Shown: piece by piece, positions 7,950-26,644 of the stretch
Position numbering within the stretch: position 1 is the first letter of the stretch
Layout: each line of letters starts with the position of its first letter
NCBI GenBank assembly: GCA_963771795.1
Contig: CAVYUR010000002.1
Location: 23,557-87,556, forward strand
Reading direction: 5' to 3'
DNA length: 64,000 nucleotides
From: an uncultured Chloroflexia bacterium
Lineage (GTDB): Bacteria > Chloroflexota > Limnocylindria > Limnocylindrales > CSP1-4
Notes under the pieces: generated by a model
The model's input: only the letters and a program-made list of their open reading frames with translations
Databases searched by the model: none
What the model was told of the DNA's origin: nothing
Translations under genes and position numbers: made by a program

Positions 7950-8363
7950 GTGTACAACGACAAGAATCTGACCTGCGCTGACTGCGGCCAGGAGTTCGTG
8001 TTCACCGCAAGTGAGCAGGACTTCTACGCACAGCGTGGGTTCACCGAGCCGCGCCGTTGTCCGTCGTGTCGCGCAAGCCGCAAGGCTGCCCGCGGTGCGG
8101 AGGGCGGCGGCAGCAGCTACGGCGGCGGCTACAGCGCAGGCGGCGGCTACAGTGCCGGCGGCGGTGGTGGCGGCGGCGGTGGCTACAGCAGCGGCGGTGG
8201 TGGCGGCGGCGGCTACGGCCGCGACCGTGGTCCCCGCGAGATGTTCGCAGCAACATGCTCGTCCTGCGGCCGTGAGGCCCAGGTCCCGTTCCGCCCAACC
8301 AGCGGCAAGCCCGTGTACTGCTCGGACTGCTTCCGAAGCCAGCGCGGCGGATCCAGCTACTAA
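7950..8363 (+). CDS. Zinc-ribbon protein (N-terminal zinc-ribbon + Gly/Tyr-rich linker + CxxC-x17-CxxC domain)
   Basis: DKNLTCADCGQEFVFTASEQDFYAQRGFTEPRRCPSC and ATCSSCG...FRPTSGKPVYCSDCF. Confidence 0.85.
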   Translation: MYNDKNLTCADCGQEFVFTASEQDFYAQRGFTEPRRCPSCRASRKAARGAEGGGSSYGGGYSAGGGYSAGGGGGGGGGYSSGGGGGGGYGRDRGPREMFAATCSSCGREAQVPFRPTSGKPVYCSDCFRSQRGGSSY

Positions 8364-8492: not shown

Positions 8493-8785
8493 GCGTTGCG
8501 GCCTGTGCTCCTCGCTCACGGACGTCTGAGTCCGTTCGCGCTTGGAACCAAGCACGCGCTTCGCGCGGCGGTGCTCGGACCGCGCCTTGCCCTGACCGCC
8601 CGGGCGCGACGAACGCAGTCGGCTGTCGCGTCTGGACGGCCGATCGCGGCGTTGACCGCTGCGCTCCTCGCTCACGGACGTTGAGTCCGTTCGCGCGTGG
8701 AACCAAGCACGCGCTTCGCGCGGCGGTGCTCGTGGTCGCCTTGCGCTCGACCATCCGGCCGCGACGAACGCCGTCGGCTGTCGTG
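8493..8785. repeat. Tandem duplication, period 155-156 bp, of a multi-hairpin unit
   Basis: Cores 8507-8577 and 8663-8732 differ by one indel and one substitution. The flanks are also homologous. Confidence 0.9.
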
Positions 8786-8801
8786 GCGGGGCACACTACC
8801 T

Positions 8802-8963
8802 GACAGATACCACCCTGTGTGGTGAGCGTCGGCACTGACACGCCCAACAGGGCTGGGACTGTGACGAATCCGGCTCAACCGGGCGCCATCAACACCCCGG
8901 GTGGTGGATGTCGTCAACTGGCGCCCGATCCGCGGTCACAAACTACGCGAGGTGGTATCTGGC
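8802..8963. repeat. Gene-less (solo) copy of the nuclease-associated repeat module, folded into a long inverted-repeat hairpin
   Basis: ACTACGCGAGGTGGTATCTGGC at 8942-8963, inverted copy at 8802-8823, GGGTGGT core at 8899. Homologous to 14329-14412 and 13472-13542. Confidence 0.8.
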
Positions 8964-8994
8964 GCCTACCTGGCGCCAAGCTGAACGACGGTAC

Positions 8995-9627
8995 TCAGCC
9001 GCCACGCCCAACGAGCAGCCCGAAGTCGAACTTTCGCTCCGTGCCATGGATCAGGCGGTCGATGTTGTCGGCGTGGGCTATCCAGACGATCGCCGCCGCT
9101 GCGGAGGCATAGAGCGGATACGCGCCGGAGATCGGCCCGTTTGCGGCTGCCCAGAGCCCCCAAGTGGCAACGGCCATCGCACCCGTTCCGAGCAACGAGC
9201 CCAGCGACACGTACCGAGTCAAAGCGACCGCGGCCACGAACACTGGCGCGGCGAGCAAGACGGCAACCGGCTGGATTGCGAGCATGCCCCCGAGATTCGC
9301 TGCGACGCTCCGTCCACCCCGGAGTCCGAGGAATATCGACCAGGTTGCACCGACCACCGCGGCCAGGGCACACAGGACCTCGACGGCGGCGCCCAGATCG
9401 AGGAGCCGGGCTACTAACACGGGGATCGCGCCTTTCAGCGCATCGCCGAGGAGCACGACGGCCGCTGGACCAGGCCCCAATGCTCGCAGCGCATTCGTTC
9501 CGCCTGTCCGTCCCGAACCAACCGTCCTCGGGTCCGCACCGCCGACCAGCCGCGCCACGGCAATGCTGATCGGGATGGATCCGACGAGGTATGACGCGGC
9601 CACGAGCAGGAGAGCCGATCCGTCCAT
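8995..9627 (-). CDS. plsY: Glycerol-3-phosphate acyltransferase PlsY
   Basis: YLVGSIP, DPRTVGSGRTGGTNALR, DALKG, GGRSVA, HADNIDRL..GTE. Confidence 0.9.
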   Translation of the reverse strand: MDGSALLLVAASYLVGSIPISIAVARLVGGADPRTVGSGRTGGTNALRALGPGPAAVVLLGDALKGAIPVLVARLLDLGAAVEVLCALAAVVGATWSIFLGLRGGRSVAANLGGMLAIQPVAVLLAAPVFVAAVALTRYVSLGSLLGTGAMAVATWGLWAAANGPISGAYPLYASAAAAIVWIAHADNIDRLIHGTERKFDFGLLVGRGG

Positions 9628-9725
9628 CCCGGGGCGAGTCTAGCAGCGGCGGATCTGCGGTCGGCCGCCATCAGACCCGTGTCGTCGGTTGCGCGGTTCT
9701 CGACGCCACGCGTACCATCGCCACG

Positions 9726-9788
9726 ATGACCCAATCGCCCGTCCGGCCGCTTGGCGTGCTCGGGATGCGGCCCGCCCGAGGCTCCTGA
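9726..9788 (+). CDS. Putative leaderless 20-aa upstream ORF (MTQSPVRPLGVLGMRPARGS) ahead of lpdA
   Basis: TACCAT -10 at 9713-9718, 7-nt spacer, ATG 9726. The stop lies 3 nt before the lpdA ATG. Confidence 0.4.
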   Translation: MTQSPVRPLGVLGMRPARGS

Positions 9789-9791
9789 CCC

Positions 9792-11234
9792 ATGGCCGTC
9801 GGCTCTTCCAACGACTTCGATCTCGTCGTGCTCGGCGCGGGTACCGGCGGCTACACGGCGGCGTTCCGGGCGGCCCAGCTCGGGCTGCGCGTCGCGCTCG
9901 TCGACGAGGACAAGATCGGCGGGACGTGCCTCCATCGCGGCTGCATCCCGACGAAGGCCCTGCTGGAATCCGCCGCGTTCACCGAGCGTGTCCGCCATGC
10001 CAAGGATTTTGGCCTGAAGCTGCCGGGCGAGGCCGAGATCGACTACGTCCAGATGGCCGCCCGCCGCGACCAGGTCGTCAAGCGGATGTGGACGGGGCTC
10101 AAGACGCTCGTCGACAAGAACAAGGTGACCTGGATCCAGGGTCGTGGCCGCCTCGATGGCCCCAACAAGATCCGGGTCGCCCAGGCCGGCGAGGATGGCA
10201 CCCCCGGAAAGGGCGGCGAGCGGGTCCTCCAGGCCAACGACGTGATCGTCGCTACCGGGTCGCGCGTCAAGTCGCTGCCCGGCCTCGTGCCGGACGGCGA
10301 ACGGATCCTGACCTCCGACGACGTCCTGCGCGCCGACAAGCTGCCGAAAGACGTGATCGTCGTCGGTGGCGGCGCGGTCGGCGTCGAATTCGCCTCGATG
10401 TACCACGACCTCGGCGTCAAGGTCACGCTTCTCGAATACCTGCCGGCGATCGTCCCGCTCGAGGATCGCGAAGTGAGCCAGGCGCTCGAGCGCAGCTTCA
10501 CCCGCCGCGGCATGACCGTCATGACGAACGCGCGCTTCGACGCGACCAAGGTCGACATCGAGAAGGCGGGCGTCTGCGTGATGGTCGGGCCGGAGGGCAA
10601 GGAGCCGCAGGAGCTGCGGGCCGACTTGATGCTGGTCGCAGCGGGACGGGCGACGAACGTCGAGGAGATCGGCCTCGATACGACGAAGGTCGAGGTCGAC
10701 AAGGGCATCATCAAGGTCGACGGCCGGATGCGGACGAAGGAGCCCCATGTATACGCGATCGGGGACGTCGTCGGCGGGCTGATGCTCGCCCACACCGCCG
10801 CGCACGAGGGCATCGTTGCAGCTCACACGATCGCCGGGGAGAAGGACGTCCACCCGATCGACTACGTGAAGCAGCCGCGGGCGACCTACTGCCGCCCGGA
10901 GATCGCCTCGATCGGGTTGACCCAGCAGCAGTGCGAGGAGCAAGGGCTGCCGATCAAGGTCGGCAAGGTGCCGTTCCAGGCGATCGCCAAGGCGATCATC
11001 GGCGGCGAGTACGAGGGCTTCACCAAGGTCATCGGCCACAAGGAGACGGACGAGACCCTCGGGATCCATATCATCGGCCCGCATGCGACGGACCTGATCG
11101 CCGAGGCATCGGTCGCGTTCGAACTGGAAGCGACGCCGTGGGAGATCGGCGGCGCAACGCACGCCCACCCGACCTTCTCGGAGGTCATGGGGGAGGCGGC
11201 GATGGCCGTTGACGGACGATCGATCAACTTCTGA
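9792..11234 (+). CDS. lpdA: Dihydrolipoyl dehydrogenase (E3)
   Basis: GAGTGGY, GGTCLHRGCIPTK redox disulfide, GGGAVGVEFA, HAHPTFSE. Confidence 0.95.
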   Translation: MAVGSSNDFDLVVLGAGTGGYTAAFRAAQLGLRVALVDEDKIGGTCLHRGCIPTKALLESAAFTERVRHAKDFGLKLPGEAEIDYVQMAARRDQVVKRMWTGLKTLVDKNKVTWIQGRGRLDGPNKIRVAQAGEDGTPGKGGERVLQANDVIVATGSRVKSLPGLVPDGERILTSDDVLRADKLPKDVIVVGGGAVGVEFASMYHDLGVKVTLLEYLPAIVPLEDREVSQALERSFTRRGMTVMTNARFDATKVDIEKAGVCVMVGPEGKEPQELRADLMLVAAGRATNVEEIGLDTTKVEVDKGIIKVDGRMRTKEPHVYAIGDVVGGLMLAHTAAHEGIVAAHTIAGEKDVHPIDYVKQPRATYCRPEIASIGLTQQQCEEQGLPIKVGKVPFQAIAKAIIGGEYEGFTKVIGHKETDETLGIHIIGPHATDLIAEASVAFELEATPWEIGGATHAHPTFSEVMGEAAMAVDGRSINF

Positions 11235-11253
11235 GCCGGCAGCGGAGGAGCTG

Positions 11254-12354
11254 ATGGCGGTGACATCCCGGACGCGCAAGGCGGCGGCAGCGCACCTCGG
11301 TGACGCGGTCGGGCTGTCCGACGCGCAGTTGCTCGAGATGTACGGCGTCGTCGCGCTCGCCCGGGCCGTCGACGAGCGGATGTGGATCCTCAACAGGGCC
11401 GGCCGGATCCCGTTCGTGATCTCGGGGCAGGGTCACGAGGGCGCCCAGGTCGGGATCGCCTGGGCCCTTGAGAAGAAGAAGGACTGGATCGCCCCGTTCT
11501 ACCGCTCGATCGCGACGTGCCTGACGTTCGGGATGAGCGCCCGCGACATCCTCACCGCGCAGTACGCGACCGCGAGCGACCCCTCGTCCGGCGGCCGTCA
11601 GATGCCGGGTCACTACGGCAGCCACGAGCACAACATCGTGTCGGTCTCCTCGCCGGTCGCGACCCAGCTCCTCCACGCCGTCGGGATCGCGCTCGCCGCG
11701 AAGATCCGCAAGACCGGCCAGGTCGCAATGACCTCGATGGGGGAGGGGAGCAGCAACCAGGGAGACGTCCACGAAGGGCTCAACTTCGCGGCGATCCACA
11801 AGCTGCCGTTCATCTTCGTCGTCGAGAACAACGGCTACGCGATCAGCGTGCCGCTGGCCCGCCAGGTCGCCGGCTCCAGCGTCGCCGATCGGGCGGCCGG
11901 CTACGGGATCCCCGGTGTCACCGTCGATGGCTCCGATGTCCTGGCCTGCTACGCCGCGTCGCGCGCAGCCGTCGAGCGAGCCCGGCAGGGCGATGGACCG
12001 ACCCTCATCGAGGCAAAGGTCACCCGCCTCACCGCCCACTCATCGGACGACCAGCAGACGAAATACCGCTCCGAAGAGGAGCTCGCCGCTGAGAAGGCAC
12101 TGGACCCGCTGCCGCTCTTCCGGGCGCAGCTCGCCGATGCGGGCGTCCTGACGCCCGAGGCGGAGGAGAAGATCGTCGCCGACATCACCGCCGCAGTCCA
12201 CGACGCGACCGAGTACGCGGAGTCGCAGCCGGATCCCGACCCCTCCACGGCGATGAAGTGGGTCTTCGCCGAGGACTGGCCGGGCGAGACGCCGCCGCCG
12301 TGGGGCTTCGGGAAGCCAGGCGTGGCCGAGGGCGAGGGCGAAGGCGCCCACTGA
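11254..12354 (+). CDS. bkdAA: 2-oxoacid dehydrogenase E1 alpha, branched-chain (Bacillus BkdAA-like)
   Basis: MWILNRAGRIPFVISGQGHEGAQVG, TPP motif GEGSSNQG...VENNGYAIS, AHSSDD. GGAGGAG SD before ATG 11254. Confidence 0.75.
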   Translation: MAVTSRTRKAAAAHLGDAVGLSDAQLLEMYGVVALARAVDERMWILNRAGRIPFVISGQGHEGAQVGIAWALEKKKDWIAPFYRSIATCLTFGMSARDILTAQYATASDPSSGGRQMPGHYGSHEHNIVSVSSPVATQLLHAVGIALAAKIRKTGQVAMTSMGEGSSNQGDVHEGLNFAAIHKLPFIFVVENNGYAISVPLARQVAGSSVADRAAGYGIPGVTVDGSDVLACYAASRAAVERARQGDGPTLIEAKVTRLTAHSSDDQQTKYRSEEELAAEKALDPLPLFRAQLADAGVLTPEAEEKIVADITAAVHDATEYAESQPDPDPSTAMKWVFAEDWPGETPPPWGFGKPGVAEGEGEGAH

Positions 12355-13337
12355 TGCCGACCAAGACCTTCATCGAGGCGATCCGCGAGGGCCTGCGCGA
12401 GGAGATGGCCCGAGACGAATCGGTCATCGTCCTCGGCGAGGACGTCGGCAAGAAGGGCGGCGTCTTCCTGGTCACGGACGGGCTGTGGGCCGAGTTCGGT
12501 GAGGAGCGGGTCATCGATACGCCCCTCACGGAGTCGCAGATCATCGGAACCTCCATCGGGGCATCGATCAACGGGCTCCGGCCGGTCGCCGAGATCCAGT
12601 TCGCCGACTTCATCTTTCCGGCCTTTAACCAGCTCCTCTCCGAAGCGGCCCGGATGCGCTACCGCTCGAACAACGGTTACGGCCTGCCGATGACGGTTCG
12701 GGCGCCGTACGGCGGCGGCGTCCACGGCGCGCTCTATCACAGCCAGTCGGTCGAGGCGTTCTTCACCCACATCCCCGGACTGAAGGTCGTGATCCCGTCC
12801 ACGCCGTACGACGCCAAGGGCCTGCTCCGCTCGTCGATCCGCGACGAGGACCCGGTCCTGTTCTTCGAGCACAAGAAGATGTATCGGAGCGTGCGCGGCG
12901 ATGTCCCGGACGGCGAGTACAGCGTGCCGCTCGGCCGGGCCGCGGTGACTCATCCAGGGACCCAGGTGACGGTCATCGCCTACGGACTGATGGCCCACTA
13001 CGCGCTCGAGGCCGCCGACCGGGTCGCGGACGAGGGGATCAGCGTCGAGGTCGTCGACCTTCGGACGCTCCGCCCGCTCGACAAGGAGACGGTCCTCGAT
13101 TCGGTCCGCAAGACCGGCAAGTGCCTCGTCGTCTACGAGGACAATCGCTTCGGTGGGTATGGCGCGGAAGTTGCCGCGATCGTGGCCGAGGAGGCGTTCG
13201 ACTACCTCGATGGCCCCGTGTCCCGGATCGCCGGCCCGGATGTCCCGAGCGTCCCGTACAACCACGCGCTCGAGGACTGGTTCATGGTGAACCCGGAGAA
13301 GATCGCCGACAGCATCCGGAAGCTCGCCGCGTACTAG
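12354..13337 (+). CDS. bkdAB: 2-oxoacid dehydrogenase E1 beta, branched-chain type
   Basis: GEDVGKKGGVF, DTPLTES, EIQFADF, GGGVHGALYHSQS. ATG overlaps the E1 alpha stop. Confidence 0.8.
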   Translation: MPTKTFIEAIREGLREEMARDESVIVLGEDVGKKGGVFLVTDGLWAEFGEERVIDTPLTESQIIGTSIGASINGLRPVAEIQFADFIFPAFNQLLSEAARMRYRSNNGYGLPMTVRAPYGGGVHGALYHSQSVEAFFTHIPGLKVVIPSTPYDAKGLLRSSIRDEDPVLFFEHKKMYRSVRGDVPDGEYSVPLGRAAVTHPGTQVTVIAYGLMAHYALEAADRVADEGISVEVVDLRTLRPLDKETVLDSVRKTGKCLVVYEDNRFGGYGAEVAAIVAEEAFDYLDGPVSRIAGPDVPSVPYNHALEDWFMVNPEKIADSIRKLAAY

Positions 13338-13375
13338 CGGCTAGTTGCCGAGGAGCGCCCGCAGGCCGCGGCAGC

Positions 13376-13489
13376 CGCCACCTACCACCCCGAGTAGTCG
13401 ATGACGCGCCGGGACGACACCACGGCGCTCCACCGAGCCCGGAATCCCCGGATCCTGCCGTCATGCTCCGTTCGGGGTGGTAGATGGCG
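13376..13489. repeat. 18-bp inverted repeat (1 mismatch) built from the same motif family
   Basis: CGCCACCTACCACCCCGA at 13376-13393 versus TCGGGGTGGTAGATGGCG at 13472-13489. Confidence 0.85.
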
Positions 13490-14412
13490 ACATATTGAGG
13501 GGACGAACAAGGCAACAACTACGCGGGGTGGTATCTGGCACTAGCCCGCACCCCGGATAACCGGGAGTAGAGAGCCCGCCGCCAAGATCGGCCGATGGAT
13601 GACGTGCGCGTGGGCCGGCTCCTTCGTGCCATGCGGCTTCGGCTCGGATGGACACAGAAACGGCTGTCGGCGCGCAGCGGCGTAAGCCAACAAGAAATCT
13701 CGCTGTTCGAGCGCGGACACGTGGACCGTGCGCCGATTCGACTTGTCCGCACCGTGTTCAAGGCGCTCGACGCCAGCGCTGACTTCGACATTCGCTGGAG
13801 GGGCGGCGGCATGGATCGGTTGCTCGACGACCGACATGCCGTACTTGTCGCCGCGGCCGGCTCGTTGCTCGCACGTGCTGGTTGGGAGGTGCTGCCCGAG
13901 GTGTCGTACAGCAGGTTCGGTGAGCGTGGGTCGATCGACCTCGTTGCCTGGCATGCACCTACGAGAACCCTCCTCGTCGTCGAGGTGAAGTCGGAGCTGA
14001 CATCGCTCGAGGCAACGCTCCGGAAGCACGACGAGAAGGTGCGCCTCGGCCCGGAGGTAGTAGCAGAGAGATACGGCTGGCGGCCAGTGAAGGTGGCGCG
14101 ACTCCTCGTATTGCCGGATAGCCGAACCGCCCAACGCCGGGTGGCCGGCGCCGACAGCGTCCTGCAACGGGTATATCCGGCGCGCGGCTGGACCGTCCGG
14201 CGATGGCTCAAGGCTCCGATCGGGCGTGGCGATGGGCTCATCTACCTGCCAATAACCGCCCCACGTAGTCGAAGTCGAGCTTCGGAACGATGAAGGAGCC
14301 GGATTCGGCGCGGATCGCCCAAGGTGCACGCCATCCACCATCGAGGGTGGTGAGCGTCATCCAGTTGCCGACAGGATCTCGGCAGTCACTACGCGGGGCG
14401 GTATCTGGCACT
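13472..14412 (+). mobile_element. Candidate nuclease cassette: direct-repeat modules 870 bp apart flanking an HTH-nuclease gene
   Basis: ACTACGCGGGGYGGTATCTGGCACT at 13518-13542 and 14388-14412 (24/25 identical), with upstream GGGTGGT cores at 13475 and 14345. Mobility is inferred, not shown. Confidence 0.55.
13595..14293 (+). CDS. XRE-family HTH fused to a PD-(D/E)XK-type nuclease domain
   Basis: N-terminal LLRAMRLRLGWTQKRLSARSGVSQQEISLFERG (XRE HTH). C-terminal GWEVLPEV...GSIDL...LLVVEVKSE (E, D, ExK catalytic pattern). Confidence 0.75.
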   Translation: MDDVRVGRLLRAMRLRLGWTQKRLSARSGVSQQEISLFERGHVDRAPIRLVRTVFKALDASADFDIRWRGGGMDRLLDDRHAVLVAAAGSLLARAGWEVLPEVSYSRFGERGSIDLVAWHAPTRTLLVVEVKSELTSLEATLRKHDEKVRLGPEVVAERYGWRPVKVARLLVLPDSRTAQRRVAGADSVLQRVYPARGWTVRRWLKAPIGRGDGLIYLPITAPRSRSRASER

Positions 14413-14423
14413 CGGGCGCCGAG

Positions 14424-15599
14424 TCACGGGCGCGACGCAGCGACTGAGACACGCAACGGGCGACCGAGGAATGCCGCCAGGCGATCCGCCTCGTCCTTGA
14501 GCTCAGGCCGGGCACCGCCGCGCCAAGAGAAGAATGGCGTGACCGCGATCGTGCCCGAGCCGCGCTTGGCAGCCTCGATCTCCCAGGTTCCGGCGACCCG
14601 GCCGTCGATGACGACGACCGGCGTGACCCAGCCGGCCGTCCGATGGACGCGGTCGTGGTGGGCGTTGCCCAGCACGGAGTCGACCCGGCGTGGCAACTCG
14701 TTGGTGAACGGATCGAAGCCCGGTAGGAGTCGAGCCTCGTGGATCGGCTTCACCGCGGCGAGCGCGGCGACATCCTCGCCGCGCACCAGACCCCGGATGC
14801 CATCGACGTCGACCTCAACGATCGGATCGGTCATGACCTTGAGCGCCCGCGTGACTGCCGCCATGCGCCCGCCGCCCCACCAGCGGGCGATCATCTCGCG
14901 GCTGGCGCCCGGGAAGACCGCGAGGTAGCGCTCGATGAGCCGCCCCAGCGCGTGGTCCGCGGCTTCCGGATCCTTGTCCGGTGCAATACGCCGGCCGAGC
15001 CACTTCGAGGGATCGACGAATGCAACGTTCCGGCCGTCCGACGGGCCGAAAATCAACCGACCGCGCTGCGCGGCCGGGCCAAGGAACGTTCCCCAGCCGG
15101 TCAGCATGTCCTCGCGCAGATGGGGTCTCTTGACGCGCTTCACCACCGCGTCCACGACCTCGACGCGGGTCATCGGGCGGTCTGACAGCCCGTTGCCGAT
15201 GGCATCGATCACCTCGGCCACGCCCGCCTCGGTCATCTTGAAATAGCGCAGCCAGACCGGCGTGTGCCAGCGCTCGAGGCTCCGTGCGGCGACGACGAAT
15301 TCCTCAAGATCGTCCGGGCTGAGCAGGTGCAGGGTCTGGCGGAAGGCCCAGACTTTGACGAGGCTCCGGCGCTCCCACAGCGCATCCCGCACATCCGCGG
15401 GTCGCAGCCCGTCGATCCTGGCGGCTGCCTGGAGTTCCGCCGAGCTCAGCACCTGGGCGTGGAGGCCGACCATCCGGGCGACGACATCGACGAGCTCGTC
15501 CCGCTTCGCCCGGTTGGTGATGCGTTGGCGCTGGAGTCGAAGCGTCAGGACCTGGGGCCAGGTCGTCGAAAGGGCCGGTGGGGCGGCTGGCTTCGGCAT
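14424..15599 (-). CDS. Winged-helix DNA glycosylase, AlkZ/YcaQ (HTH_42) family
   Basis: GLHAQVLSSAELQ, VKVWAFRQTLHL, RLLPGFDPF, PVVVIDGRVAGTW. Confidence 0.75.
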   Translation of the reverse strand: MPKPAAPPALSTTWPQVLTLRLQRQRITNRAKRDELVDVVARMVGLHAQVLSSAELQAAARIDGLRPADVRDALWERRSLVKVWAFRQTLHLLSPDDLEEFVVAARSLERWHTPVWLRYFKMTEAGVAEVIDAIGNGLSDRPMTRVEVVDAVVKRVKRPHLREDMLTGWGTFLGPAAQRGRLIFGPSDGRNVAFVDPSKWLGRRIAPDKDPEAADHALGRLIERYLAVFPGASREMIARWWGGGRMAAVTRALKVMTDPIVEVDVDGIRGLVRGEDVAALAAVKPIHEARLLPGFDPFTNELPRRVDSVLGNAHHDRVHRTAGWVTPVVVIDGRVAGTWEIEAAKRGSGTIAVTPFFSWRGGARPELKDEADRLAAFLGRPLRVSVAASRP

Positions 15600-15648
15600 C
15601 GCCAAATGATGCCGTCTCGACCTGACATGGTTTGTCAGGTACGGCGCG

Positions 15649-25505: not shown

Positions 25506-26510
25506 ATGGACGTCGCGTATCGCGAGGAGCCTTGCCGCTCGGCGCTGAACCGCGTGAGGGGCATGATGTTCGGCTGGTCGCTCAACCCGTACATGGGCTG
25601 CGCCCACCGCTGCACCTTCTGTTACGTCCGGAATTTCGAGCGGCGCGCCGATCGGCCCTCTGACGACCGATACGGCCGATCGATCCGGGTCAAGGTCAAC
25701 GTCGTCGAGGTGCTTCGCCGGGAGCTCGCTAGGCCGCGCTGGAAGCACGAAGTCGTCGCAATCGGAGCCGCGACGGACCCATACCAGCCGGCGGAGGGCA
25801 GGTACCGGCTGACGCGCGGCTGCATCGAGGCGCTCGCCGAGGCCCGCAACCCGCTCTCGATCATCACCCGCGGCCCGATGGTCATCCGCGACATCGACGT
25901 CCTCGTGGAAGCCTCGCGACGTGCGAAGACATCGGTCACGTTCTCCGTCCCCACGCTCGATCACGAGATCTGGCGAACGACGGAACCGGGCACGCCGCCA
26001 CCCCGGCAACGGCTTCGGGCGCTGAGCCGCCTGGTGGACGCGGGCATCGACGCCAGCGTCGGGATGGCCCCGATCCTGCCAGGTCTATCGGACCGGCCTG
26101 AGCTGATGGCGGACGTCGTCAAGGCCGCCCGCGATGCCGGTGCGACGTCGATCTGGACGAACGTGCTGTACCTCCGGCCCGGAACGCGCGAGCACTTCCT
26201 TGAGAACCTCGCTCGCGACTGGCCGGAGCTCGTGCCACGTTATGAGCGCCAGTACGCCGGTCGCGCCTACCTGCCGAAGAGCCAGGTCGAGACGGTTCGG
26301 CGCGAGGTCGCGGACCTTCGCCATCGGTTCGACATCGCCGATCGTCGCCAGGTCAGGCTCATGCCGGCGCCCGCGCCTGATCCGAACGAGCAGCTCCAAC
26401 TGGGCCTCGGCGCCGCCGTACCTGGCCAAATGTCCACCCGCAGAACGTTCGGGAAGCTGGGTGGTGCCGTCGGCGCTCTGGATGGCGATTCGTTAGCCGC
26501 TACAGGGTGA
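25506..26510 (+). CDS. SplB-like DNA-repair radical SAM protein (Rv2578c/PA0069-like family)
   Basis: SLNPYMGCAHRCTFCYVR, GAATDPYQPAEGRYRLTR, EPGTPPP..RL, MAPILPGLSD. Confidence 0.85.
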   Translation: MDVAYREEPCRSALNRVRGMMFGWSLNPYMGCAHRCTFCYVRNFERRADRPSDDRYGRSIRVKVNVVEVLRRELARPRWKHEVVAIGAATDPYQPAEGRYRLTRGCIEALAEARNPLSIITRGPMVIRDIDVLVEASRRAKTSVTFSVPTLDHEIWRTTEPGTPPPRQRLRALSRLVDAGIDASVGMAPILPGLSDRPELMADVVKAARDAGATSIWTNVLYLRPGTREHFLENLARDWPELVPRYERQYAGRAYLPKSQVETVRREVADLRHRFDIADRRQVRLMPAPAPDPNEQLQLGLGAAVPGQMSTRRTFGKLGGAVGALDGDSLAATG

Positions 26511-26644
26511 TTCTTCGCGCAGGAGCGCCCTGTAGTGGGGTCGGACCTGCCCTAGGGTTCCCCGGGCGAACATTTGGCCAATTGCAGTCGCTGGGGCGGC
26601 CCCGACACCCGCCGGAAGCCAGTCCCTCGGCTATCCTGAGTCCG

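Follow-up and report, generated by a model that had tools for sequence, protein, structure and literature searches.

REP/REPIN elements reportedly occur together with RAYT genes. RAYT is an HUH/Y1 (IS200-like) transposase that is largely stationary and vertically inherited, and it is present as several paralogues, each with its own repeat class. The repeats are palindromes of 20-40 nt with a GTAG/CGTC tag, which are found in tens to hundreds of copies and form doublets of ~100 bp. The present analysis concerns a set of repeats with a comparable layout and a different enzyme, found in a 64,000-nt stretch of an uncultured Chloroflexia bacterium (assembly GCA_963771795.1, contig CAVYUR010000002.1, positions 23,557 to 87,556), which is referred to as the window. 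The element in question is a module of 164 bp bounded by inverted arms. Three copies of it lie in the window, and two of these flank, on either side, a gene (13595-14293) for a protein with an XRE-type helix-turn-helix (HTH) and a predicted PD-(D/E)xK restriction-endonuclease-fold domain.

Comparison between genomes, all of which are metagenome-assembled genomes (MAGs), establishes a family-wide linkage, physical as well as in sequence, of such HTH/restriction-fold nuclease genes with a three-site inverted-repeat module. It also establishes arm types that are specific to individual paralogues and that recur in gene-less copies. The reading favoured here, which is held as probable though by no means secure, is that the 164-bp modules are cognate site clusters of the 13595-14293 nuclease, i.e., a gene-plus-repeat system resembling REPIN/RAYT with a different enzyme. 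In the literature searched, nothing was found that describes this gene-repeat pair.

Module architecture and the nuclease gene

The modules and the gene with its upstream region are as follows.

8801 to 8964, + strand: module 1, a gene-less 'solo' with the window's own arm type (L 8801-8823, M ~8883-8913, R 8942-8964)
13377 to 13540, + strand: module 2 (L 13377-13399, M 13459-13489, R 13518-13540)
13541 to 13594, + strand: promoter/operator-like region of the nuclease gene, with two RRTAAGC-type boxes and a CAnnAT-type -10-like element
13595 to 14293, + strand: nuclease gene, encoding the 232-aa protein P0001 (XRE HTH plus the predicted PD-(D/E)xK restriction-endonuclease-fold domain)
14247 to 14410, + strand: module 3, the gene-linked 'master' copy (L 14247-14269, M ~14329-14359, R 14388-14410)

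A sequence-only reading of the window had described three loci with GGGTGGT-N36-ACTAC and a core distance of 51 bp, and this description is borne out. A scan for GGGTGGT and ACTAC, with the gap free to vary from 30 to 42 nt, gives exactly three matches in the window versus 0.02 expected from shuffles, and all three have a gap of 36 nt. GGGTGGT is at 8899, 13475 and 14345, and the matching ACTAC is at 8942, 13518 and 14388. At each of these loci 51 bp separate the T of GGGTGGT from the T of the R-arm GGTGGT, and the three 36-nt interval sequences that had been quoted are correct. With up to two mismatches allowed, the window has three occurrences of the 23-nt R arm, ACTACGCGGGGTGGTATCTGGCA, versus 0 expected. 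Absent from the earlier description is an inverted copy of the arm, L, which is found 141 bp upstream of R at each locus. The whole unit, from the start of L to the end of R, has the same length of 164 bp in all three window copies, and a fourth copy of the window's own type, on another contig (C1:384998-385161), is likewise 164 bp long.

L and R are inverted 23-nt arms, and the GGGTGGT core is part of a middle palindrome, M. L, M and R are three degenerate palindromes of ~31 bp with the consensus TGCCAGAT-ACCAC-N5-GTGGT-ATCTGGCA, which was drawn from better-preserved copies in relatives; comparison with the relatives' copies also shows that the outer 'tails' are best kept in L and R. The core centres are 82 bp apart between L and M and 51 bp apart between M and R. 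In arms of the window's own type the palindromic core is ACYAC-N5-GTRGT. It should be noted that the real left boundary of the modules lies ~13 nt to the left of the L starts listed above; at module 1, these positions (8788-8800) still resemble the 3′ coding end of the nuclease gene.

All three window modules have orthologues in the sister species G004. In that of module 1, L, M and R are conserved and the interior has diverged. Module 2 sits between the E1-beta gene, which ends at 13337, and the promoter of the nuclease gene, and its R arm ends 54 bp ahead of the gene start. A CGAATCC-like motif is found within the module interior. GAATC/GATTC, mostly as CGAATCCGG-like words, is ~6-fold enriched in the interiors of modules of all arm types (16 observed versus 2.5 expected genome-wide, in 13 of 17 modules), usually 42-66 nt from the start of L; examples in the window are at 8863-8873, 13439-13449 and 14299-14309.

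Residues 6-62 of P0001 form the XRE-type HTH (Pfam HTH_31/HTH_3). The C-terminal 160 residues match no Pfam family, and residues 88-145 have weak matches to the YraN family. The C-terminal domain carries E102, D115 and E130-x-K132; among 40 homologues D115, E130 and K132 are invariant and E102 is nearly so. An AlphaFold2 model (mean predicted local distance difference test score, pLDDT, 89.6) has an alpha-beta-beta-beta-alpha-beta core, in which the strands 98-107, 110-120 and 125-131 bear D115 and E130-x-K132. The top Foldseek matches of this domain are the R2 retrotransposon protein, AF1548, XisH and Can2/Card1, at 15-19% identity, and the aligned part presumably corresponds to the restriction-like nuclease domains of those proteins. 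By its modelled core fold, in which strand 2 bears an acidic residue and strand 3 the (D/E)xK motif, P0001 qualifies as a member of the PD-(D/E)xK superfamily. The fold and the catalytic motif are in common with PD-(D/E)xK domains of selfish elements, such as the R2 restriction-like endonuclease, XisH and the homing endonuclease I-Ssp6803I. However there is no reverse transcriptase here and no intron or intein context, and the Foldseek identity is too low for membership of any of these families.

Important is the overlap between the nuclease gene and module 3. The last 15 codons of the gene fall within arm L of this module, L itself covering codons Y217-S225. The folded domain of the protein ends ...G-L-I-Y-L-P, and the codons of its last L and P (CTG CCA) are the start of the arm.

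The upstream region of the gene has boxes GATAACC and GTAGAGA, ~11 bp apart, and a -10-like CCAAGAT 6-7 nt ahead of the ATG. Most of 85 family genes (loci L031-L110), judged by eye, show the same pattern: a pair of RRTAAGC boxes at a spacing of ~11 bp, then a CAnnAT-type element that lies 7-9 nt ahead of the start codon. Such a layout suggests leaderless or near-leaderless mRNAs, and it suggests the RRTAAGC boxes as a candidate operator that is independent of arm type. The sequence GCCAGA(C/T), found before start codons, was considered as a third transposon end and rejected, since it belongs to the -10-like element of the family promoter pattern.

Paralogues, relatives and arm types

The genome of the window (2.8 Mb, 69% GC, 83% complete; Chloroflexota, class Limnocylindria) has five further members of the nuclease family, which are 38-50% identical, one of them frameshifted. 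In all six family genes an L arm lies over the last codons and an inverted copy follows ~140 bp downstream, and the arm sequences differ from paralogue to paralogue. The only gene that shares the arms is the HTH-nuclease gene, and it is positioned outside the arm pair. When the genome was searched with the arms of each paralogue, gene-less copies with matching arms were found elsewhere, one to several each, for the window's gene and for four of the five paralogues; for one arm type the gene-less copy is known from a single arm only. The same search with the arms of the frameshifted paralogue gave no gene-less copies. This paralogue, split by the frameshift at G000 C6:1378641-1379323, is a pseudogene or an assembly error and retains its own L/R pair.

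Where both arms are present, modules of the window's own type are 164 bp long (4/4 copies), those of the type named C3 163 bp (4/4 copies), those of type C6a 168-170 bp and those of type C6b 162-172 bp. In total ~17 modules of all types are found in 2.8 Mb. GTAG is present at the inner end of the own-type arm and not in the other arm types. One module of another type lies in the window.

26421 to 26582, + strand: gene-less C6b-type module, 162 bp end to end, with arms CCTGGCCAAATGTCCACCCGCAGAAC ... GTTCCCCGGGCGAACATTTGGCCAAT, cognate to the paralogue at C6:1184119-1184781

To the left of L, ~13 nt from the 3′ coding end of the gene are preserved in at least two of the gene-less copies, an own-type and a C3-type one. 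This suggests that those gene-less copies derive from a gene-linked copy.

The linkage extends beyond this genome. Eighty Limnocylindria loci from other MAGs were surveyed, of which 77 were testable, and at least 29 of the 77 have a significant inverted arm pair straddling the gene end, with spans of 113-203 bp and diverse sequences. The strict arm-pair test was also applied to 20 loci from a second family of the class; 6 of them pass, and several more reach or approach the control score. A cognate module is also found just upstream of the promoter, as in the window, at 6 of 22 loci; the remaining 16 have the 3′ module only.

Of 36 genomes of the genus, 34 encode members of the protein family, at 2-10 copies per genome, and none was found in the streamlined sister family. 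In a sample of 301 Chloroflexota genomes it is confined to Limnocylindria. It amounts to 827 clusters at 50% identity (E<=1e-30), which the sources label only 'XRE family transcriptional regulator'.

At 22 of the 80 loci an lpd-E1alpha-E1beta (2-oxoacid dehydrogenase) operon directly precedes the nuclease gene, with E1-beta next to it; a recurrent neighbour on the downstream side is an E2-type gene. The window has this operon (9792-13337) without a following E2, the next genes being AlkZ-like and PhzF-like. No conserved partner gene was found across the loci, and the recurrent E1-beta and E2 neighbours reflect synteny. Orthologues at the E1-beta locus are only ~50% identical and have quite different arms. 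Thus the protein and the arms diverge fast together.

Several features are those of REPIN/RAYT. The nuclease gene is stationary and vertically inherited, each of the six paralogues is tied to its own repeat class, with gene-less inverted doublets for the window's gene and four others, and the gene is flanked or overlapped by its own repeats. The gene-less units are inverted copies of a short palindrome, they are intergenic and without regular target duplication, and they persist for long periods. However the enzyme is an XRE HTH joined to a predicted PD-(D/E)xK domain and not an HUH/Y1 transposase. PF01797, the family of the Y1/RAYT transposases, has no match in the window's genome, whereas the named control genomes match, and thus the repeats are not otherwise explained by Y1/RAYT. 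The modules here are 145-170 bp with three sites, versus doublets of ~100 bp; the copies are few to ~10 per type, versus tens to hundreds; the arms, of 23-31 nt, show GTAG in the own type only and have the appearance of protein sites on double-stranded DNA, not of single-strand hairpins. Because the RAYT enzyme is absent, and because fold, copy number and module architecture differ, the system is regarded as an analogue of REPIN/RAYT and not as a member.

Miniature inverted repeat transposable elements (MITEs), such as Correia, ERIC, RUP and TIMEs, are derivatives of the ends of a DDE-type insertion sequence (IS) or transposon; their terminal inverted repeats are identical to those of an autonomous IS, and the target is duplicated where they insert. 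The modules resemble them as short gene-less elements with terminal inverted repeats, with sub-families of characteristic length and with presence/absence differences among relatives. In contrast to MITEs, both arms here lie downstream of the folded coding part of the gene, and there is neither a DDE enzyme nor, in 13 copies, a consistent duplication.

The internal layout of the module recalls the res site of Tn3/gamma-delta, where the enzyme is a serine recombinase (resolvase) and each transposon has one res. In both cases three imperfect palindromic dimer sites with fixed, unequal spacing span ~120-165 bp and adjoin the gene of the presumed binder. The differences are the hydrolytic nuclease fold and the dispersed copies found here. 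This likeness bears on the possibility of an excision/integration cassette, in which the direct modules would serve as res/att sites, the gene and one module would leave as a circle, the solo would stay, and re-entry would take place at another solo. Besides the three-subsite layout at fixed spacing beside an enzyme gene, which is reminiscent of Tn3-family res, such a cassette would account for the module-gene-module order here and in 6 of 22 loci, and for the position at which synteny with G004 ends, exactly at 14410, the outer end of R of module 3. XisH, an excision-controlling factor, is moreover among the structural neighbours of P0001. However no serine or tyrosine recombinase domain is found in the protein, PD-(D/E)xK enzymes do not religate, a 3′ module alone is the arrangement at 16 of the 22 loci, and the gene is syntenic across many genomes. 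A cassette of this kind is considered highly unlikely. The last codons retained in gene-less copies do not discriminate here, because recombination between flanking modules predicts them too.

The 36-nt interval, the 51-bp spacing and the arms

A pair of similar cores that keep a constant distance, with 36 dissimilar nt in between, might be taken for a degenerate repeat-spacer unit of the type found in clustered regularly interspaced short palindromic repeats (CRISPR). The intervals of the three loci, however, have a pairwise identity of 39-42%, and thus they are diverged homologues and not unrelated sequences. They also hold their position without gaps in the orthologous modules of the sister species. 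Searches with these segments, which the sequence-only reading had treated as variable, returned nothing significant: there was no match among phages, only two matches among plasmids, with E=0.3, and only short chance words in the genome itself. The 36-nt segments are, by these comparisons, the diverged interior of old copies and not acquired spacers.

A CRISPR array has three or more direct repeats, unique spacers matching foreign DNA, and cas genes. Here each locus has just two cores, which do not make up an array, the intervals are homologous between copies and have no targets, and the unit is bounded by inverted arms. Pfam places the genes adjoining the modules in unrelated families (plsY, lpd, E1 alpha/beta and AlkZ-like), and no cas gene was seen beside the modules, though no systematic search for cas genes was run. 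The CRISPR-like explanation is effectively refuted.

The 51-bp distance between M and R is likewise free of gaps in the orthologous modules of a sister species. In relatives, arms of the window's own type also bound sub-families of several other lengths. In a sub-family of 154-155 bp, three copies have an M match 50 bp from R. In a sub-family of 144-146 bp no M match was found in the scan, and in one of 155-157 bp there was again no M match in the scan, the interior being shared between copies and different from that described above. The 51-bp period is thus a property of one sub-family: the period that had been called invariant holds for the 164-bp sub-family and its orthologues, and does not hold for the others, where the distance is 50 bp or M is missing. 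Among the additional copies, variable spacing is therefore found in part, i.e., across sub-families. The conservation of length is probably in part a matter of inheritance, because substitutions far outnumber indels, and it may also reflect constraint.

The sequence-only reading had offered two explanations for the fixed length, i.e., the geometry of a dimeric HTH/nuclease on DNA, or a processed guide-like RNA. These lead to different expectations for the arms. In 25 L/R pairs the non-complementary positions comprise 26 of G:U type, 25 of A:C type and 70 of transversion type; with G:U and A:C in near-equal number there is no preference for wobble pairs on either strand. Among 22 own-type modules from several genomes, the likeness of L to R is 17.77 of 23 positions within modules and 17.49 between modules (P=0.12). 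Since L and R are no likelier to be alike within a module than between modules, each arm is kept close to a common consensus, and the two show no covariation of the sort seen in base-paired strands. Between orthologous modules, compared in three pairs, identity is 86% in the arms versus 63% in the interior (P=1e-6). Taken together, these comparisons point to arms that behave as double-strand protein sites and not as RNA stems.

A functional role at the RNA level was nevertheless considered. The module could be transcribed, as a 3′ untranslated region or as small RNAs, into a long hairpin closed by L and R, which might be processed or might serve the nuclease as guide, antitoxin or stability element. 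Folded as single strands, the modules score better than shuffled sequences (z = -4.8, -4.2, -2.8), the master copy lies in the 3′ end of its gene, as do the guide RNAs of TnpB/IscB, and module 1 alone has four mismatches of G:U type. The folding scores, however, are uninformative, because any inverted repeat folds. The larger set of L/R pairs has no G:U excess, its mismatches being mostly of transversion type, and there is no covariation within modules. M is a direct repeat of R and not its pairing partner. A scan of the 64-kb window against Rfam at the gathering score found tRNA only and no match to the modules, and the 36-nt intervals are without targets. An RNA element is likewise considered highly unlikely, and of the two earlier explanations the guide-like RNA is not sustained: two direct cores per locus do not make an array, and the interval is homologous and keeps its position. 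The fixed geometry for a dimeric HTH/nuclease is upheld in substance. It agrees with the XRE HTH and predicted PD-(D/E)xK domain encoded next to the modules, with one arm type per paralogue, and with arms conserved to a consensus. The 51-bp spacing may matter for helical phase, but the other sub-families have no M match or a different length.

Age of the copies and proposed role of the nuclease

All four own-type modules of the window's genome have syntenic orthologues in sister species, and they are thus old. Where G004, G035, G006 and G008 have filled sites, the corresponding intergenic region of this genome is short and empty; G004 has two copies that are 95% identical on different contigs, and G008 has modules in tandem. 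Copies have evidently been gained or lost between species, as judged from these comparisons. It should be noted that the intergenic DNA of the relatives (~80% identity) is too diverged for exact insertion boundaries to be read from filled and empty sites. A near-identical pair of 262 bp in G004 was considered as a high-copy element and rejected, as only 2-3 copies exist. In a rough survey based on crude open reading frame calls, modules are found at the 3′ ends of genes, in many cases those of a convergent pair, and in no clear case between the members of a divergent pair.

These positions bear on the alternative that the modules are operator or architectural sites. In that case the protein would be a domesticated regulator or nucleoid protein acting at three-operator clusters, its nuclease fold would have another role, and the copies would have arisen by ordinary duplication. 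Arms kept to consensus, under purifying selection at orthologous positions, are what such sites would show, as are palindromic cores at fixed spacing together with an XRE HTH in the protein. Also in favour of this alternative are the end of R of module 2 at 54 bp before the gene start and, at 22 of 80 loci, the vertical inheritance of the gene next to the operon for 2-oxoacid dehydrogenase. However the preference for gene 3′ ends in that survey, with none clearly between divergent genes, speaks against operators, and the promoter boxes, which are conserved across all types, are better candidates for autoregulation than the type-specific arms. The catalytic residues D115, E130 and K132 are invariant, with E102 nearly so. 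Operator sites would also leave unexplained the universal copy over the gene's own 3′ end and the dispersed and tandem copies of characteristic length. This alternative is judged unlikely.

In the favoured reading, that of cognate site clusters of the nuclease, the module overlapping the 3′ end of the gene would be the master copy, from which the gene-less modules would be derived. Dimers of the protein would read the arms by means of the HTH, as the palindromic cores and the XRE fold suggest, and the restriction-endonuclease-fold domain might nick or cut at the module. Host repair or recombination could then copy modules to new intergenic places or duplicate them in tandem. A wider proposal is that the XRE-HTH/PD-(D/E)xK proteins of Limnocylindria are a new class of repeat-propagating enzymes (a 'RAYT analogue', or a new transposase or homing class built on the restriction-endonuclease fold), each of which would recognise the three-site module of its own type and copy it from a master set into the 3′ end of its gene, with protein and arms co-diverging rapidly even at a fixed locus. 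This proposal is put forward tentatively and is regarded as doubtful.

Several observations weigh against the view of the modules as copied sites of the nuclease. PD-(D/E)xK enzymes hydrolyse DNA without joining it, so that a transposition chemistry is not obvious. Recent mobility is documented in relatives only, the four copies of the window's genome being old, and copy numbers are low, at 2-10 per type per genome. No consistent target-site duplication was found in 13 copies, the sole candidate being an 8/9 match at the C1 copy. M, taken as a 31-bp block, is 66% identical between orthologues versus 63% for the interior and is thus not more conserved, although its GGTGGT core is kept. In relatives the pairing of protein and arms may also depart from type: one gene, in G012, combines arms resembling the window's own type with a recognition helix close to the HTH helix of the C3 paralogue, and own-type arms are found in G035 and G008, two incomplete MAGs whose best matches to P0001 are only 43-46% identical.

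If the linkage means what it appears to mean, a genome 'symbiosis' in the style of REPIN/RAYT, i.e., a single-copy nuclease gene keeping a private population of short repeats, would have arisen twice in evolution, here on the basis of an unrelated enzyme and in an uncultured lineage of fresh water and soil. The restriction-endonuclease fold would then join the enzymes known to maintain interspersed repeats in bacteria, and a family of 827 clusters, now known only by the label of a transcriptional regulator, would gain a likely role. It would also provide naturally diversified pairs of proteins and 31-bp sites, with several in each genome and, in metagenomes, protein clusters by the hundred, which could be mined for rules of DNA recognition or for programmable nicking.

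Some minor observations were made near the modules. The AlkZ-like DNA glycosylase gene at 14424-15605 (- strand) is absent in G004, which has 236 unrelated bp in its place (break region 14411-15620). Directly to the left of module 1, at 8503-8783, a 155-bp unit is present in tandem, in 1.8 copies that are 88% identical, and it is missing at the orthologous site in G004. The unit is a dispersed repeat, with ~14 partial or complete copies in G004 and ~6 in G003, and fragments of 47-55 nt are found at five other places in the window's genome; it holds short hairpins, e.g., ACGGAC-GTCTGA-GTCCGT. Further upstream, at 7950-8363, is a gene with two treble-clef zinc-finger domains (zf_Tbcl and zf_Tbcl_2), which are parted by a Gly/Tyr/Ser-rich low-complexity tract with tandem repeats of 18-33 nt (8103-8231). 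Two more R-like arms of the window's own type, in direct orientation and 83 bp apart, are found at G000 C2:88213-88235 and 88296-88318, ~650-760 bp past the end of the window, and similar paired direct arms are also present in G008 and G018.

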